A DNA stretch of 64,000 bases from an uncultured Alphaproteobacteria bacterium (lineage in GTDB: Bacteria > Pseudomonadota > Alphaproteobacteria > CAAHEQ01 > UBA3637): contig CALXUR010000003.1 of NCBI GenBank assembly GCA_944391735.1, positions 12,287 to 76,286 of the forward strand, given 5' to 3'. Below, piece by piece: positions 30,670 through 41,242 of the stretch; the first letter of the stretch is position 1; each line of letters starts with the position of its first letter. The translations under genes were made by a program, and so were the position numbers. The notes under the pieces are model-generated. The model saw only the letters and a program-made list of their open reading frames with translations. It was not told the origin of the DNA and did no database searches.

Positions 30670-30746
30670 TGGTGGGCCCGGTAGGACTTGAACCCACGAC
30701 CTATCCGTTATGAGCGGACAGCTCTAACCAACTGAGCTACAGGCCC
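30670..30746 (-). tRNA. tRNA with a CAU anticodon: elongator tRNA-Met or lysidine-modified tRNA-Ile2
   Basis: Minus-strand sequence GGGCCTGTAGCTCAGTTGGTTAGAGCTGTCCGCTCATAACGGATAGGTCGTGGGTTCAAGTCCTACCGGGCCCACCA folds as a cloverleaf with CCA encoded. Anticodon loop CUCAUAA. It is not the initiator type. The C4-G69 and C5-G68 pairs are compatible with TilS substrates. Confidence 0.9.
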
Positions 30747-33460: not shown

Positions 33461-33536
<76 letters not shown>

Positions 33537-33705: not shown

Positions 33706-34158
33706 ATGAAATATATTCTGATTTTAACATTACTGTTGATGAGTGTATCCGCTGGTGCGGTGACAGTTGAGGATATGTCAGAAGCACGAAAGCAAGCAGA
33801 GTTTGAGGCACGTGCGATAGATAAGATTTGTTGGAACGAGGCATTTAAAGATAAGCCGGATACGACAAGAGCTATGTGGGCGGCAGCGGTGCGGAACACA
33901 GACTGCTTATATAAGGAGATAGAAAAACAGGTAAAGCTGGCTTTTTTACCACAGGATCATGAAAAGATGATGGTGTTAATTCATGCAGCCGGTAAAAATA
34001 TAGCGGATATTTACTTTGAGATGCATACCAGTAACCGGTATTGTTACGGGCATTGCGGAACTATGAATAACATCACGCATACGGTGAATGAAATGGAGTT
34101 TTTAATTGGCGTGTTAACAGATTTAATTTTGATGAACAGGATAAAAGACAGTGTATGA
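33706..34158 (+). CDS. Small secreted Cys-containing protein (150 aa), copy 1. Candidate periplasmic immunity protein or lysozyme inhibitor.
   Basis: Signal peptide MKYILILTLLLMSVSAGA. Conserved Cys including CYGHCGTM. Paralogous to 34635..35087. Convergent with a GH108 toxin remnant. Confidence 0.5.
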   Translation: MKYILILTLLLMSVSAGAVTVEDMSEARKQAEFEARAIDKICWNEAFKDKPDTTRAMWAAAVRNTDCLYKEIEKQVKLAFLPQDHEKMMVLIHAAGKNIADIYFEMHTSNRYCYGHCGTMNNITHTVNEMEFLIGVLTDLILMNRIKDSV

Positions 34159-34634: not shown

Positions 34635-35087
34635 ATGAAATATATTCTGATTTTAACATTACTGTTGATGAGTGTATCCGTTGATGCAGCGGAAAAGGAA
34701 GAAGTGTGTGACACGTTGGAATGTGCGAAGGCTCAAGCGCATCACATTGGAAAAACGTGTTGGGATGAGGCGTATAAGGATGATCCGTATTCGACAGCGG
34801 AGATGCGCCGAGCCGATTTTAATGCAAATGATTGCATGTATAAAGCGGTGGAGGAGCAAGTCAGGCAAGCTTTTGAACCGACCGAGCAAGAGCAGGTTTT
34901 AGAATGGATTATGACAGGGTGGCGTGGGGTCAGTCAAACATACTGGATGATTTTTAACAATAATAAATATTGTTACGGTCGTTGTGGAACAATGCAACAT
35001 TTACGAAATACTCCTTTTGAAGCTCAATTTTTAGAGCAGGTTTTGGCTTGGTTAATTCATGCAAATGCAAAGAAAGGGAGTATTTAA
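34635..35087 (+). CDS. Small secreted Cys-containing protein (150 aa), copy 2
   Basis: Same signal peptide as copy 1. CYGRCGTM. Convergent with the intact GH108 toxin gene. Confidence 0.5.
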   Translation: MKYILILTLLLMSVSVDAAEKEEVCDTLECAKAQAHHIGKTCWDEAYKDDPYSTAEMRRADFNANDCMYKAVEEQVRQAFEPTEQEQVLEWIMTGWRGVSQTYWMIFNNNKYCYGRCGTMQHLRNTPFEAQFLEQVLAWLIHANAKKGSI

Positions 35088-35097
35088 CTCCCTTCCT

Positions 35098-36360
35098 TTA
35101 TTTGATAAAGTGACGTTCGCTTCTGGTTGTCAGACCTTTTCGGCGGGTTCCGTATCCGGCTGGGTTTGCGTCAGCGTATTGGTTTATTTGTCCGGAACGT
35201 TGTCGGACAATATAATTGTTGACTTCTTTCATTTGTTGAAGGGTCAAATTATTAAGGGCATTAATGGTTTGTGATCCCATGATGCCGTCTTCATCTACTT
35301 GAAAAGAAGTCAATTGATTAATACCTTGTTGCACCCATTGAATCGGCTCTATCGGAGAATGGTTTGCCAAAAGGTCAAATAAGGTCTTGGCTAACTTTTC
35401 ATTTTTAATTTCTTCAATGCGGTAGGCATCGTAATAATCCATTTTATAAATGGTTGTTGCCTGATCCCTTGTTAAATCCTTAACGGTAGCGGGATATGTT
35501 CTTCCCAAAGTCGGATGGGCCGCTTTAAAACGATTTAATGAACCTTGAATAACACCCATATTGGTCGGTTGATCTATTCTAGTCGGTCTATCTTCATAAC
35601 CGCCCTCTTCCTGATAGACAGATGACAACAGGCGATCAAAACGGGTGGTGGAACCGTAGCCCAAAAGTTCATTCATCTTATCGACCGTCAGGTCATCGGG
35701 GCGCAAAATGCCGGTTCTATCCAAACCGTTATCTCGTTGAAAAGCCGAAATGCCGTCAAACAGTTGTTGGTCGGGATAGGGGGTTATTCCCTCTGACTCC
35801 GGCAGGTAATAGCCCAAGTCGTATAAGGCCTCTTTTGTCGAGATAACGTCTGTGGGAGAGGCGAAAGAGGGGCTGACGGATTGTGTGATAAAAAAGCCCT
35901 GCGCGTCGGTATTGTTATCTGTTAAAAAGTTCGGTTTTATCGGTGGTAACGACGGGTATTGATTTGCATCAACCGTTACGGACGGTTGCGAAATGGTCGG
36001 CTTTTGATAATAATTCGGCGCGGGCAGAGAGTTTAAATCCCGAAAGGCTCGATTTAACAATTTTTCGTTTTCTCGGGCATTTTTTTCGGCACGTTTGCTT
36101 TGGCTTGTTTCTTCCCTATTTTTTTGCTGTGCTTCTTTTTCATCATGGTCTTGTCCGCAGATGCGGTTATAGGGTTTGACATGCTTACCCTTTCGCATAT
36201 GGCCGGGAACGTGAATGAGTTTTTGGCAATGTCCGGATGTGTCGTGTCCTTTGGAACTGAGTTGTCGCTTCGGGATAATTTGTGCCTGTCCCGTGAAAGA
36301 GCTCAGGTTTTGTAATATTTTGGCGATATTGATAAATGCGGTAAGAGATTTTTGATCCAT
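35098..36360 (-). CDS. Polymorphic toxin-like protein: conserved His/Cys-rich N-terminal domain, S/T/P/Q-rich linker, GH108 lysozyme-like domain and PG_binding_3
   Basis: N-terminal GHDTSGHCQKLIHVPGHMRKGKHVKPYNRICGQDHDEKEAQQKN is shared with 38438..38773, 40284..41024 and 36841..37245. The C-terminal half has the EEGGYEDR...DQPTNMGVIQ catalytic block of glycoside hydrolase family 108 and a DEDGIMGSQTINALN PG-binding segment. Start taken as Met18 of the track ORF (RBS AAAGGAAAAGC). Confidence 0.6.
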   Translation of the reverse strand: MDQKSLTAFINIAKILQNLSSFTGQAQIIPKRQLSSKGHDTSGHCQKLIHVPGHMRKGKHVKPYNRICGQDHDEKEAQQKNREETSQSKRAEKNARENEKLLNRAFRDLNSLPAPNYYQKPTISQPSVTVDANQYPSLPPIKPNFLTDNNTDAQGFFITQSVSPSFASPTDVISTKEALYDLGYYLPESEGITPYPDQQLFDGISAFQRDNGLDRTGILRPDDLTVDKMNELLGYGSTTRFDRLLSSVYQEEGGYEDRPTRIDQPTNMGVIQGSLNRFKAAHPTLGRTYPATVKDLTRDQATTIYKMDYYDAYRIEEIKNEKLAKTLFDLLANHSPIEPIQWVQQGINQLTSFQVDEDGIMGSQTINALNNLTLQQMKEVNNYIVRQRSGQINQYADANPAGYGTRRKGLTTRSERHFIK

Positions 36361-36495
36361 GCTTTTCCTTTCAATAAAAAAAGCCCGCCGCAAGAGATTC
36401 CGGACAGGCATAAAAAAATCGGGATATACTTGTCCCGATTAACTAAAAAAAGTATAGCATAAATTAAATGAAAAGTCAAGGAATATTTTCCTATT
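36361..36495. repeat. Conserved 5' leader/promoter element of the toxin genes, copy R1. Other copies: 37261-37388, 38774-38918, 41025-41165.
   Basis: AATAAAAAAGCC(C/T)G(C/T)CG..AGATTCCGGACAGGCATAAAAAAATCGGGATAC recurs immediately upstream of every toxin start codon. R1 and R4 also share AAAAGTCAAGGAATATTTTCCTAT. Confidence 0.6.
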
Positions 36496-36556: not shown

Positions 36557-36796
36557 CTATTTCGGGTTTACGGGATAGAAACGGCATATTTGTTTTTCTA
36601 TATCCCAAACACCTCGGCCATAGCAAGTGTCTTCATTAACAACGCATTCAGTTCCCCAATCACAGTGCGCAAATATAAATCCCTTGGGACAAATACCACC
36701 CGAGAGACAATCATCCTCCCGTAAATCTATATAAGTCATAAGAGCGACTGTCACTATGGTAAAAACTGTCAAACACATAAAAAAGAAAAACTTCAT
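36557..36796 (-). CDS. Small secreted Cys-rich protein (79 aa, 8 Cys). Candidate immunity protein downstream of the decayed toxin 36841..37245.
   Basis: Signal peptide MKFFFFMCLTVFTIVTVAL. Same strand as the toxin remnant and directly 3' of it. Confidence 0.4.
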   Translation of the reverse strand: MKFFFFMCLTVFTIVTVALMTYIDLREDDCLSGGICPKGFIFAHCDWGTECVVNEDTCYGRGVWDIEKQICRFYPVNPK

Positions 36797-36840: not shown

Positions 36841-37245
36841 CTAATATTTCAAAGGTAAGCCTGATGGTCTGAAAATGCCACAGCTTTCACTTAATGTTTT
36901 TCCTTTATTGGCTCCCCGCAATCCGGAAATATTTGCTTTCATGTCAGATAAACTTTCATTAGGACCATATTTAAAAACATCTTTACTTTCTTTTAACAGA
37001 GATAACAGAAGGCCTACTAGGTTACCGTAGACACCCCGTGAACCGGCTTCATAGTTTGCTTTACAGTGAAAGTATTTATCTCCGCCGATAAAATTAGTTT
37101 TATTCATATCATTAAAATTTCGGATGAAATCTTTGAGCGGTGCAAATAGTCCGGTCGTTGTTTTTTCCGCTTGATTTTTTTATTGAGCTTCTTTTTCGTC
37201 GGGTGCTGGCACACCGATTGCATTTCCGATGGGTTCTGTTTCCAT
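36841..37245 (-). pseudogene. Decayed toxin paralog: the N-terminal domain carries an internal in-frame deletion and a CAA-to-TAA nonsense codon (37180-37182). The C-terminal small domain is of unknown function.
   Basis: METEPIGNAIGVPAPDE joins directly to KEAQ(*)KNQAEK, with the central roughly 55 codons missing. The same frame continues into track ORF 36841..37107 (FIGGDKYFHCKANYEAGSRG...). Confidence 0.5.
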
Positions 37246-37478
37246 GATCTTTTTCCTTTCAATAAAAAAGCCCGCCGCAAGAGATTCCGGACAGGCATAA
37301 AAAAATCGGGATACACTTTTATTTTAAAAAACTTGTTTTTTACTTTTGAAATTGATAGAATTGTATAAAGGTTTAAAGAGGATATCTAATGAAATATGTA
37401 TTTGGAATTATTTTGGGATTGTTTTTGGTTTCTTGTCAAACACAAGAACCGGTTCAATTTAAAAATCCGATTTTTTAT
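37195..37478. repeat. Duplicated module of about 285 bp: toxin N-terminus, leader, divergent intergenic region and lipoprotein N-terminus. Second copy at 38725-39008.
   Basis: Near-identical stretches from CGTCG(G/A)GTG..CACCGATTGCATTTCCGATGGGTTCTGTTTCCATGATCTTTTTCC through ...CAATTTAAAAATCCGATTTT. Confidence 0.6.
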
Positions 37479-37772
37479 GAAACACTTTATCCTATTTCCA
37501 AGACGGTTCGGGAGACGCGATTGACACCGACGAAGATATATGTGAATGCATTTATTTCGGAAAAAGAGTGTCGATTGCTAAAGAATACCGAGACCGTTTT
37601 GGAGTTTTCCTGTGAATACGACCATCCGTTCAGCGGGCATTTTTCGGATGTATTTTATCGGTATGTTATTGAAGGGGAGGAATCAAAATATACCAATTGT
37701 TTGATTGTTAGGTTGGAAATGCCCGGTGGAACAGCCTGGTTTTGTATTCACCGAGAAAAACCACAGGATTAA
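37389..37772 (+). CDS. Lipoprotein (127 aa), island-associated. Candidate immunity protein.
   Basis: MKYVFGIILGLFLVSCQTQEPVQFKNPIF lipobox. The N-terminal 30 aa are identical to 38919..39389. Convergent with the lysozyme-like toxin domain gene. Confidence 0.55.
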   Translation: MKYVFGIILGLFLVSCQTQEPVQFKNPIFYETLYPISKTVRETRLTPTKIYVNAFISEKECRLLKNTETVLEFSCEYDHPFSGHFSDVFYRYVIEGEESKYTNCLIVRLEMPGGTAWFCIHREKPQD

Positions 37773-37829: not shown

Positions 37830-38773
37830 CTATTTGTTTCTATATTTACAAGGAGAATAAAACCATCCATTGATTAATGGAATTTCCCGTAAAGTATTTC
37901 TGGCCCAATCATTGCGGGTTTTTCCGACCTGATATCTATTTACCTCGTTAATCATTTGAAAAACATTTTTTTTGTTAACGCCCTCAAAGAAAAAATGCCA
38001 TTTTTCAGAATTAAAATTGTGCCCCATATTATATTGCATGTCTAATAAAACCATTTGTAGCGTTCTGGGATATGTTTCAAATGCCGGAAATTTTGATTCT
38101 AATTCAGCTAAGTCATTTCCCAAATGTTCCATTGTTTTATCAATAATTGTGTGTTCGGATAGAGTTAGTTCTTGGGAATGATTTGTTACACGGAAGTCTT
38201 CTGAAGTATAATTTTTTCCAAATATTTTCTGTTTTTGAAAATCCAAGAGTCGTTTATATTCGCCTAGTTTTTGCTCGGTTGTAGCCTCTTTTCCTTGATA
38301 CATCCAGGGGAGTGATATAAAGGTTTTTTGATTCGGAATATATAACCCGCTGGCGGCTGTTATCTTTCCCAATGTATCCAAATAGGCATAATTGATTGAT
38401 CCTTCATGTTTTTTTAGATATGGCCAGTATGCTTGAATTAATTCATCATATTTTCGTTGTTTTTTTTAGATACAGTTTCTTTTTGAGAAAGTGTTTCTTT
38501 GTTAACTTTTTCCGCTTGGTTTTCTTGTTGAGCTTCTTTTTCGTCATGGTCACGGCCACAGGTGCGGTTATAGGCGTTGACGGGTTTGCCTTCGCGGCTA
38601 TGAGCGGGAACATGTATCATTTTTTGACAATGCCCCGATGTGTCGTGTCCGTTTTGAGAATTATCGCTGTTTCCGAACAGAAAAGCGAATAGATTTTGTC
38701 GGTTATTATTGACTTGGTTGTTTTCGTCGAGTGTCGGTACACCGATTGCATTTCCGATGGGTTCTGTTTCCAT
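37830..38773 (-). pseudogene. Toxin paralog split by a frameshift at a T8/A8 homopolymer: N-terminal conserved domain (38438..38773) and T4-lysozyme-like C-terminal domain (37830..38381)
   Basis: The N-domain ORF stops 20 codons after the A8 run. The downstream ORF frame is open from immediately after the run. Inserting one A fuses them. The C-terminal domain has LLDMQYNMG...NRYQVGKTRNDWARNTL, resembling the phage/T4 lysozyme (GH24) C-terminal lobe. Confidence 0.55.
38460..38467. repeat. T8 homopolymer (A8 on the coding strand) at the frameshift site
   Basis: gttg-TTTTTTTT-agat. A +1 slippage restores a roughly 310-aa open reading frame. Confidence 0.6.
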
Positions 38774-38918
38774 GATCTTTTTCCCTTCAATAAAAAAAAG
38801 CCTGCCGCAAGAGATTCCGGACAGGCATAAAAAAATCGGGATACACTTTTATTTTAAAAAACTTGTTTTTTACTTTTGAAATTGATAGAATTGTATAAAG
38901 GTTTAAAGAGGATATCTA

Positions 38919-39389
38919 ATGAAATATGTATTTGGAATTATTTTGGGATTGTTTTTGGTTTCTTGTCAAACACAAGAACCGGTTCAATTTAAAAATCCGA
39001 TTTTTAATAAAAAACTAGAAGCTATTTCCAAAATTCTTAATGATGTAAAAATAACTCCGACAGAAATTATAGATCTAAAGGATCCGGAGGTATTACCGGC
39101 AACGTGTGAGTTATTGTCCGATGAAGGATATCGTATTATTATGAAGTGTGTGCAGCCCTATCGAACAATACCGGTGCAAACGGTGTATTACCGTTTTACA
39201 AATATGGGAAAATATGAACCATTCTATTCGTCAGAAAAAAATCTGTGTGAAATTCATCAGGAGCAATGTGATGATATGGATTTTCAAAATTTTTACTCTT
39301 GGGGTGTTTTTGTCGTTCGATTAAACGATGGGGAGGATTGTGGTCCTCAGATGCCTGAAGACCAACTCCCCGAATGGTTGATCAGGTAA
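38919..39389 (+). CDS. Lipoprotein (156 aa), island-associated. Candidate immunity protein.
   Basis: Lipobox LVSC. The C-terminal roughly 90 aa (ATCELLSDEGYRIIMKCVQPYRTIPVQTVYYRFTNMGKYEPFYSSEKNLCEIHQEQCDDMDFQNFYSWGVFVVRLNDGEDCGPQ) are identical to 39445..39912. Confidence 0.55.
   Translation: MKYVFGIILGLFLVSCQTQEPVQFKNPIFNKKLEAISKILNDVKITPTEIIDLKDPEVLPATCELLSDEGYRIIMKCVQPYRTIPVQTVYYRFTNMGKYEPFYSSEKNLCEIHQEQCDDMDFQNFYSWGVFVVRLNDGEDCGPQMPEDQLPEWLIR
39081..39350. repeat. 270-bp direct repeat at near-100% identity. Second copy at 39610-39879.
   Basis: Identical from GATCCGGAGGTATTACCGGCAACGTGTGAG through GAGGATTGTGGTCCTCAG. It encodes the shared C-terminal part of the two lipoproteins. Confidence 0.6.
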
Positions 39390-39444: not shown

Positions 39445-39912
39445 TTGATGAAGCATGTGTTCGGGGTTATTTTGAGTGTGTTCTTGGTTGCTTGTCAAAC
39501 GCAAGAAGCGGTTCAATTTAAAAACCCGGTTTTTAATAGAAAGTTGGCATCAAATGTGAGTATGGATTACGATATTGTGATAACGCCGAGAATCATGGTC
39601 ACTTTAAATGATCCGGAGGTATTACCGGCAACGTGTGAGTTATTGTCCGATGAAGGATATCGTATTATTATGAAGTGTGTGCAGCCCTATCGAACAATAC
39701 CGGTGCAAACGGTGTATTACCGTTTTACAAATATGGGAAAATATGAACCATTCTATTCGTCAGAAAAAAATCTGTGTGAAATTCATCAGGAGCAATGTGA
39801 TGATATGGATTTTCAAAATTTTTACTCTTGGGGTGTTTTTGTCGTTCGATTAAACGATGGGGAGGATTGTGGTCCTCAGGCACCTAAGGACCAACTTCCC
39901 GAATGGTTTTGA
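39445..39912 (+). CDS. Lipoprotein (155 aa), tandem paralog of 38919..39389 with a divergent N-terminal third
   Basis: MMKHVFGVILSVFLVACQTQEAVQFKNPVF lipobox. The C-terminus is identical to the upstream paralog. Confidence 0.55.
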   Translation: MMKHVFGVILSVFLVACQTQEAVQFKNPVFNRKLASNVSMDYDIVITPRIMVTLNDPEVLPATCELLSDEGYRIIMKCVQPYRTIPVQTVYYRFTNMGKYEPFYSSEKNLCEIHQEQCDDMDFQNFYSWGVFVVRLNDGEDCGPQAPKDQLPEWF

Positions 39913-40283: not shown

Positions 40284-41024
40284 CTAGTATTTAACTTGAA
40301 CAATAACATCATATCCATTATTTTGAAACCATTTTGCAAAATCAGCCATTGCCTTTGTTAGATCAATACATCCGGCAGAACCTGGCGTTAAGCCTCCATG
40401 AATAGAAAAATTATTTCTTCCATATAGATTAGTATCATTCGCTGGTGTTAACCAAATGCGTTGTTCTCCCCATGCAGCTGTTCCACCTCTCCACTGTCCG
40501 CCACCTATTGAAGACTTAAATTTTTGCCATGCTCCCAAATTTTCCCACTTTTGAAAATCGCTGATTTTTGCAACATAATTGTCTTCGGGAAGTGGACCAT
40601 AATTTTTTAAATCCTGATAATTTGGATGTTGAAAGCCCGGTCGTCCGGATACACCTTTCCATTCCTTAATAATTTCTCCATTTTCGTGCAGGGTAAGACT
40701 TTTACCATTAAAAGATAAATACTGCCCATTTTTTAGGTTTAATGGAGTATTCCATTGTGTATATGGATTATTTTTTTGTTGAGCCTCTTTTTCGTCGTGG
40801 TTACGGCCGCAGATGCGTTCATAGGCGTTGACGGGTTTGCCTTCGCGGCTATGAGCGGGAACATGTATCATTTTTTGACAATGCCCCGATGTGTCGTGTC
40901 CGTTTTGAGAATTGTCGCTGTTTCCGAACAGAAAAGCGAATAGATTTTGTTGACTGTTATTTCTCGGATTGTTTTCGTCGGGTGCTGGCACACCGATTGC
41001 ATTTCCGATGGATTGTGTTTCCAT
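40284..41024 (-). CDS. Polymorphic toxin-like protein: conserved His/Cys-rich N-terminal domain and Tlde1/DUF2778-like (YkuD L,D-transpeptidase-fold) C-terminal domain
   Basis: N-terminus METQSIGNAIGVPAPDENN...NGHDTSGHCQKMIHVPAHSREGKPVNAYERICGRNHDEKEAQQKN. C-terminus has ...GRPGFQHPNYQDLKNYGPLPEDNYV and FSIHGGLTPGSAGCIDL (His...SxGC catalytic motif of the YkuD/Tlde1 family). Confidence 0.6.
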   Translation of the reverse strand: METQSIGNAIGVPAPDENNPRNNSQQNLFAFLFGNSDNSQNGHDTSGHCQKMIHVPAHSREGKPVNAYERICGRNHDEKEAQQKNNPYTQWNTPLNLKNGQYLSFNGKSLTLHENGEIIKEWKGVSGRPGFQHPNYQDLKNYGPLPEDNYVAKISDFQKWENLGAWQKFKSSIGGGQWRGGTAAWGEQRIWLTPANDTNLYGRNNFSIHGGLTPGSAGCIDLTKAMADFAKWFQNNGYDVIVQVKY

Positions 41025-41242
41025 GGTCTTTTTCCTTTCAATAAAAAAGCCTGTCGGATCAGATTCCGAACAGGCATTAAAAAAATCGGGATACATTTAT
41101 CCCGATTAACTGAAAGATATCATATCATAAATCAGATTAAAAGTCAAGGAATATTTTCCTATAAATAGAAATATTTTCTTTATTGACTTTTGTCGGGAGG
41201 CGTGAAATACTGAACGAAAGTTGACGATGAAAGGAGAAGGTT

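Follow-up and report, generated by a model that had tools for sequence, protein, structure and literature searches.

Pesticin of Yersinia pestis is a bacteriocin that carries a T4-lysozyme-like muramidase domain (PF16754) and is matched by a periplasmic immunity protein, Pim. Here we describe a putative toxin gene with a C-terminal domain of this kind in an uncultured gut alphaproteobacterium. The gene lies at 37830..38773 on the minus strand of a 64,000-nucleotide stretch of contig CALXUR010000003.1 (positions 12,287 to 76,286; assembly GCA_944391735.1), referred to below as the window, and is split into two open reading frames (ORFs) at a run of eight adenines (A8). The explanation that best accounts for the split, to which we would give a probability of about 0.7, is a real, heritable −1 frameshift that arose once or twice and inactivates the toxin while the immunity gene is kept, amid widespread decay of related cassettes.

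Pesticin with Pim would appear to be the closest functional analogue. In both systems a non-catalytic N-terminal module is fused to a T4-lysozyme-like toxin domain acting, here presumably, in the periplasm, and an adjacent gene for immunity, a candidate in the present case, has a product that faces the periplasm. The N-terminal modules are unrelated, however, with no pesticin receptor-binding or translocation domain detectable here, and the gene stands in a chromosomal multi-cassette array rather than on a plasmid. With T4 lysozyme and the lysozyme domain of T4 gp5 (GH24, PF00959) the protein shares a two-lobed fold and an E-x8-D-x5-T motif aligned on the catalytic residues, but the identity is only about 12–16%, some 40–50 residues are inserted between the lobes, and the context is that of a toxin instead of a phage endolysin.

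In its organisation the locus resembles a polymorphic-toxin array with orphan, decaying cassettes. Polymorphic toxin systems, as set out by Zhang et al (2012) in the form cited in PMC12419801, comprise arrays of alternative or orphan toxin–immunity cassettes. The likeness lies in a conserved 5′ module (leader plus N-domain) joined to variable tips (GH24-like, GH108 with peptidoglycan-binding, Tlde1-like and prok-SAA), in a small lipoprotein or membrane-protein gene beside each cassette, and in a cassette order that varies between strains, truncated or orphan copies being common. Unlike the described systems, the array has none of the known trafficking domains, the shared N-domain being an undescribed motif of ~50 residues.

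The position of the break also recalls simple-sequence-repeat contingency loci, such as those of Haemophilus, Neisseria and Campylobacter, where slipped-strand mispairing gives rise to phase variation; as at such loci, the length of a homopolymer within the ORF sets the frame, and on and off lengths are both found in the species. In the group B streptococcal type VII secretion system (T7SS), slip-strand truncations have been described in essC (G-tract) and esaA (A-tract) (PMC9900821). There, as here, some strains have lost one base from a homopolymer, which truncates a part of an interbacterial-toxin system and may be either regulation or plain loss, but there the machinery genes are hit and here a toxin tip, in another phylum and another secretion system. 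The lesion itself is a familiar one, a homopolymer-indel pseudogene.

Results

The gene is broken within a run of lysine codons

Across the junction the minus strand reads GTA TCT AAA AAA AAC AAC GAA AAT ATG ATG AAT TAA. The upstream ORF (38438..38773, minus), of 111 amino acids (aa), comprises the N-terminal region and linker. It passes through the A8 run, which consists of Lys codons (38467..38460, minus; T8 of the plus strand), and ends ...SKKNNENMMN*, with an 8-residue out-of-frame tail, KNNENMMN. The stop starts 20 nucleotides (nt) past the run, after six sense codons, where the preliminary description had placed it 20 codons past. In the other (−1) frame a TAA at 38468..38466 overlaps the start of the A8 run and no further stop occurs until 37830..37832, and the frame for the T4-lysozyme/pesticin-like domain (37830..38465, minus) is open from inside the run. 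The tract is 8 nt long here and 9 nt (G followed by A8, written G+A8) in relatives. Sixteen A/T runs of at least 8 nt occur in the window; the coding strand of the gene is 40% A, and Lys is encoded by AAA in 27 of its 28 codons.

Insertion of one A at the run gives a protein of 314 aa with the junction ...TVSKKKQRKYDELIQAYWPYLKKHEGSINYAYLDTLGK..., agreeing with the ~310 aa foreseen when the pair was first described as split at a homopolymer, while neither A7 nor A10 restores the frame when introduced in silico. The fusion that had been predicted for nine adenines is indeed obtained with A9, although the natural in-frame tract turns out to be G+A8, encoding SEKKQRK. A search with the restored protein returned 18 relatives, 12 of which (272–318 aa) are continuous through the junction and have the same architecture, the intact homologues measuring 302–318 aa, and two contigs of the same species (L013 and L016) encode the intact 314-aa protein (P0027 and P0028). 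As these full-length proteins span the junction, comparison of the sequences indicates that the split is a genuine frameshift and that the two ORFs are not chance ones. We considered, and rejected, a pair of functional genes, as the earliest start available to the lysozyme frame, a TTG at 38381, falls 3′ of the codon for the catalytic Glu124. Since there is no start codon upstream of Glu124, no active toxin would be expected from the truncated gene.

The C-terminal domain resembles T4 lysozyme and pesticin

The intact 314-aa protein consists of a Cys/His N-domain, a helical linker rich in Lys, Glu and Gln, and a C-domain of ~200 aa. The putative catalytic motif of the latter, E124-x8-D133-x5-T139 (HEGSINYAYLDTLGKIT; 38358..38405, minus), aligns with the Glu, Asp and Thr of the T4 gp5 lysozyme domain and of T4 lysozyme. 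Glu124, Asp133 and Thr139 are invariant across 15 homologues with the spacing found in T4 lysozyme. A profile of the family matched both the T4 gp5 lysozyme domain (7cn7_A) and T4 lysozyme with E = 1e-3, aligned on the same three residues; hhalign of the profile against the T4 lysozyme sequence alone gave a probability of only 24%, though again aligned on the catalytic motif.

The AlphaFold2 model of the C-domain has a pLDDT of 89.4 and a pTM of 0.80. When it was compared with the PDB using Foldseek the best 50 matches were all T4 lysozyme or pesticin with probabilities of 0.98–1.00, TMq of 0.46–0.53 and TMt of up to 0.67 (T4 lysozyme), though with E-values of only 0.03–0.07. The best match was to pesticin (4arm_A; E 0.027, probability 0.99), and the full-length model gave the same outcome as the C-domain. 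A phmmer search of the C-domain against PDB sequences yielded noise only, and a Pfam scan of the restored fusion gave no match at E ≤ 0.1, the gathering threshold of PF00959 not being reached; in contrast to pesticin, the 314-aa protein is below threshold for PF16754 as well. Two paralogues that share the N-domain do exceed the PF00959 cut-off of 22.3 bits (P0044 with 27.7 and P0051 with 22.9), and P0051 also has a weak match to PF16754. The link to these two is indirect, through P0018, which matches the query (E 2.3e-27) and aligns with both.

The fold and the motif thus support a T4-lysozyme-like C-domain, though the protein does not formally belong to the Pfam family. The homologues, the profile match and Foldseek all bear out the earlier characterisation of the protein as toxin-like, with a conserved N-terminal domain and a C-terminal one resembling T4 lysozyme. 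From its sequence we infer that the product of the gene is a toxin, the lysozyme-like domain presumably being a muramidase that would cut peptidoglycan in the periplasm of a competitor.

A lipoprotein gene at the 3′ end is retained

At every locus examined the toxin gene is followed by a convergent gene for a lipoprotein of 127 aa (37389..37772, plus), the candidate for cognate immunity. Ten other loci of the species include this gene in full, and in each it is 100% identical; in L016 it is rearranged, its 5′ end having been swapped for that of a paralogous lipoprotein. In ten loci from other lineages a lipoprotein with 31–69% identity occupies the same place. It would seem likely that this is the immunity protein, a position that fits immunity facing the periplasm.

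Paralogous lipoprotein genes are found at 38919..39389, 39445..39912, 33706..34158 and 34635..35087, all on the plus strand, with near-identical signal peptides (MKYVFGIILGLFLVSCQTQEPVQFKNPIF); one tandem pair has near-identical C-terminal halves. Together the lipoprotein paralogues probably form a pool of immunity genes that outnumbers the toxin cassettes.

Tract alleles are tied to haplotypes within the species

Look-ups by exact sequence added 11 contigs of this species, with flanks 98–99% identical to the window, to make 12 contigs in total. Comparison of the tract among related strains, as had been proposed beforehand, revealed a 9-nt in-frame allele and two alleles of 8 nt. G+A8 (9 nt, in frame), lying between TCT and CAACG, is present in L001, L013, L016 and L017. 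G+A7 (8 nt, −1) is present in L014, L015, L018, L019, L020 and L022, which represent six samples, ERZ16268180, ERZ16268235, ERZ16268269, ERR10610622, ERR10610561 and SRR27143275, drawn from three or more accession series. The third allele, A8 lacking the G (8 nt, −1), is present in the window (L012) and in L021, a Logan assembly of ERR4096481 whose source may be the biological sample that also gave the window. No tract of any length other than 8 or 9 nt was seen among the 12 contigs, and an exact-flank scan of JGI metagenome contigs for more alleles gave 0 matches.

Linkage of the tract to nearby single-nucleotide polymorphisms (SNPs) is complete, all −1 alleles carrying 38524G/38519C and all in-frame alleles A/T. 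G+A7 forms a single haplotype over its six samples, and the A8 allele is likewise a single haplotype, with six private SNPs. In L014 and L015 the flanks differ by ~2% while the frameshifted cassette is identical, which shows that the G+A7 allele has persisted or been transferred and is not flickering. All 12 contigs agree on the length of the gene's other A8 run (37966..37973), and wherever its A7, A6 and T6 runs are covered these too are constant in length. No indels were found in ~29 kb of pairwise-aligned housekeeping flank, which includes five runs of 7 and nine runs of 6, when the window was compared with five other contigs.

Given that the state of the tract is completely linked to flanking variants, the −1 state would have arisen by one mutation or two and been stably inherited since. 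Two separate −1 events would leave the same picture as a single one followed by a G>A change and recombination, since both −1 alleles share 38524G/38519C.

Other lesions affect the same gene

L001 has a 98-nt deletion in the lysozyme gene and L017 has two deletions, and thus only L013 and L016 are fully intact. In L001 deletions of 21 nt (~4240, syntenic to window ~40866) and 98 nt (~6190, syntenic to window ~38636) in paralogous N-domains start at the identical point, ...GACACATCG|GGGCATTGT, a coincidence that points to recombination between copies of the repeated N-domain or else to an artefact of assembly. Among other species, L006–L009 have an intact orthologue, L002–L005 and L011 one with a nonsense codon, and L010 one that lacks the N-domain. 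In the orthologous linkers of six other lineages the longest run is A7, at other positions.

Weighing the explanations

In this strain the ancestral linker tract GAAAAAAAA (Glu-Lys-Lys) has become AAAAAAAA, a net loss of one base in an A-rich run of Lys codons that ends translation 7 codons on and truncates the protein before the toxin domain. On the favoured reading such a tract is a mutational weak point, and the frameshift has been stably inherited in the species. The candidate immunity gene is retained while the toxin would be lost, leaving an ‘immune non-producer’, and the frameshift would be one among many routes by which cassettes of this family are inactivated. The haplotype-linked tract alleles and the replicated −1 alleles favour an inactivating mutation, the option that the preliminary description had listed beside a phase-variable switch and a sequencing error.

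Several observations weigh against this explanation. The −1 alleles have no further disabling mutation over 633 nt of lysozyme coding sequence, which fits a recent loss but equally a gene that is still used. With eight of the 12 contigs ‘off’, four ‘on’ and two lengths only, the distribution has the same look as that of an on/off switch. Simple slippage in G+A8 would not yield the A8 of the window, which lacks the G and requires either that the G was lost or that there were two steps. L001 and L017 carry their deletions in the repeated N-domain, and these are possibly assembly artefacts. Finally, the sample of contigs is small and derives from protein-cluster look-ups, possibly with related samples, and the alleles were read from consensus contigs, where within-sample mixtures of length are invisible.

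A phase-variable contingency switch, in which slipped-strand mispairing would toggle the toxin frequently and reversibly between on (9 nt) and off (8 nt) with immunity constant, would account for a break that falls exactly within a homopolymer, for the presence in the species of both 8- and 9-nt states and none other, for the absence of secondary lesions in the lysozyme domain of ‘off’ alleles, and for an immunity gene that is always intact. The streptococcal slip-strand truncations provide a precedent (PMC9900821). The tract is, however, tied to SNPs 52–57 nt off and to whole-gene haplotypes such that each state looks monophyletic; the G+A7 allele offers just A7 for reversion; and the control A8 run of equal length does not vary in any of the 12 contigs. 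Nor is the run conserved in the orthologues of other species, and other lineages carry deletions or nonsense codons that are irreversible. A/T runs of 7–8 nt, as in these alleles, are also short for a simple-sequence contingency locus, and even the restriction to lengths of 8 and 9 nt can be counted on this side. The switch envisaged in the preliminary description is therefore disfavoured and we regard it as improbable. The same holds for a broader version, in which the 9-nt G/A-A8 linker tract acts as a real contingency switch, with slippage of RNA polymerase perhaps giving some leaky rescue, and the toxin is toggled while immunity is kept; we would give it little credence. Were a switch of this sort real, it would represent phase-variable interbacterial weaponry in an uncultured gut alphaproteobacterium, with an undescribed Cys/His N-terminal trafficking domain and export route.

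A second way to retain a function for the −1 alleles would be recoding, either by polymerase slippage that adds an A or by a −1 ribosomal shift on A_AAA_AAC, which would yield a low level of full-length toxin. Either event would restore the frame exactly, and A_AAA_AAC is in phase (0 frame) in both −1 alleles, having been created by the deletion, while the lysozyme domain of the ‘off’ alleles is undamaged. Transcriptional slippage can restore disrupted bacterial genes that contain A/T runs (PMC1088944). According to the same source, however, selection against slippage-prone runs is typically evident from 9 nt, and the present run has 8. No downstream stimulatory structure is apparent, as the next 90 nt have a folding energy of −9.7 kcal/mol (z = 0.07), and the heptamer AAAAAAC occurs in the window at chance frequency (51 observed, 53 expected). 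Both the ancestral allele and the orthologues read in frame, moreover, so that a frameshift is not a conserved feature of decoding, and rescue of this kind is similarly doubtful.

An error of sequencing or assembly at the homopolymer, with a true tract of 9 nt and an intact gene, might be suspected in a metagenome scaffold (ENA ERZ28613925 scaffold_72), homopolymers being classical sites of indel error, but it is very unlikely, as A8 recurs on the same private haplotype in the independently built Logan assembly L021 (ERR4096481), six samples carry the sister −1 allele G+A7, the ~29 kb flank has zero indels against five contigs, the other runs in the gene agree across the 12 contigs, and a miscounted G+A8 would read G+A7 rather than A8 without the G.

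The shared N-terminal domain

A variable N-terminus leads into the invariant Cys/His core of the N-domain, HD-SGHC...HV...R...Y-R-CG--H, which spans ~50 aa with two Cys and four His (NGHDTSGHCQKMIHVPAHSREGKPVNAYNRTCGRDHDEKEAQQ; 38507..38653, minus) and has no Pfam match. The N-terminal 100 residues likewise match nothing in Pfam and show no visible hydrophobic signal sequence or signal peptide. None of the recognised trafficking or secretion domains looked for in the protein (PAAR, RHS, LXG, MuF, TPS, signal peptide) was found. A word-indexed homology search with the N-domain alone returned only the query itself and one fragment and was replaced by a full HMMER scan of 1.84 billion clustered proteins, which gave 21 representatives at E < 1e-3. 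At least one of these is false (P0047, a TPR protein), and the domain is thus rare, with ~14–21 clusters in all. The N-domain is presumed to be a trafficking or export module.

The β-hairpin core of the domain (hHVxxYTRxxGxxVxxYxR) recurs as tandem repeats in the unrelated proteins P0053, P0055 and P0058, one of which carries a U-box/RING domain. This core may be a more widespread small module.

The toxin array

Between 35.1 and 41.1 kb the window contains four minus-strand cassettes with a common leader and N-domain and differing C-terminal tips. Beside the frameshifted lysozyme-like cassette (37830..38773) there is an intact cassette with the N-domain, PG_binding_1 and GH108 (35098..36360, minus), equivalent to P0043 of 420 aa, and an intact one with the N-domain and a Tlde1/YkuD-like tip (40284..41024, minus), equivalent to P0017 of 246 aa. 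The remaining cassette has a serum-amyloid-A (SAA)-like tip (PF00277, E 5e-14; 36841..37245, minus) and is degraded: an in-frame deletion of 195 nt has removed the core of its N-domain, and a CAA>TAA change has introduced a nonsense codon; undamaged versions of 213–219 aa are found in other strains (P0015 and P0016). Prok-SAA toxin tips of polymorphic toxins have already been described (PMC12419801). Directly downstream of the SAA cassette a Cys-rich small membrane protein of 79 aa is encoded (36557..36796, minus), which may be the immunity protein of the SAA tip (compare PMC12419801).

One conserved N-region with four alternative toxin tips is thus present in the window, and the same arrangement holds family-wide. 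Related loci in GTDB species-representative genomes belong to metagenome-assembled genomes of uncultured Alphaproteobacteria, some from yak rumen. The neighbours of the array are housekeeping genes (AnmK, an acyltransferase, MscS and CarD) and not a secretion system. A tRNA-Ala(CGC) (33461..33536, plus) marks the edge of the array and a tRNA-Met (30670..30746, minus) is nearby; the array sits between these tRNAs, with MscS and CarD on one side and AnmK on the other. The local G+C content is 36–37% at the array and about 45–49% elsewhere. The order and content of cassettes vary among strains of the species (window 35.1–41.2 kb compared with L001, L013, L014, L016 and L017). The lysozyme cassette is first in L014, L015 and L017 and third in the window, and L001 and L013 have a second lysozyme-type cassette in the place that Tlde1 occupies in the window.

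The leader and promoter

In the leader of the lysozyme cassette a hairpin (GCCTGTCCGG..CCGGCAGGC; 38792..38826, minus) and the U8 run behind it lie ~20 nt ahead of the ATG; they belong to the 5′ module that is repeated at every cassette. Copies of the leader lie at 41022..41147 and 36355..36479 (minus), with partial copies at 38771..38866 and ~37250..37350. Intact cassettes are preceded by a strong σ70-like promoter, TTGACT-17-TATGAT or TATACT, downstream of which two tandem elements, each a hairpin plus U-run resembling a terminator, lie within a long-range stem that covers the Shine-Dalgarno region. The segment 41022..41118 folds at −34.1 kcal/mol (z = −5.7). In the two broken cassettes of the window (lysozyme and SAA) the promoter is missing, as is the left arm of hairpin 1. 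The T-run after hairpin 2 (38792..38799 and its equivalents) ranges from T6 to T8 among strains and paralogues and is the only other homopolymer that varies in length in the regions compared. An Rfam scan of the whole window matched the two tRNAs only, leaving the structured leader unmatched. It may be an attenuator-type element.

Discussion

The frameshift itself is ordinary: a single lost base has knocked out one redundant cassette of an array. Annotations should join the two ORFs as one frameshifted pseudogene and not list two genes. The knockout allele is the commonest among the contigs sampled. With the toxin gone and the immunity gene at 100% identity, the pattern is the one expected of bacteriocin-type competition dynamics, and we infer that loss of the toxin is neutral or favoured, as for an ‘immune non-producer’.

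The array family is small, apparently limited to gut or rumen Alphaproteobacteria, and would provide cell-envelope toxins of four tip types. Its N-domain and structured leader are the sole parts that may be new. If the N-domain does mark a new delivery route, the array deserves a dedicated study.

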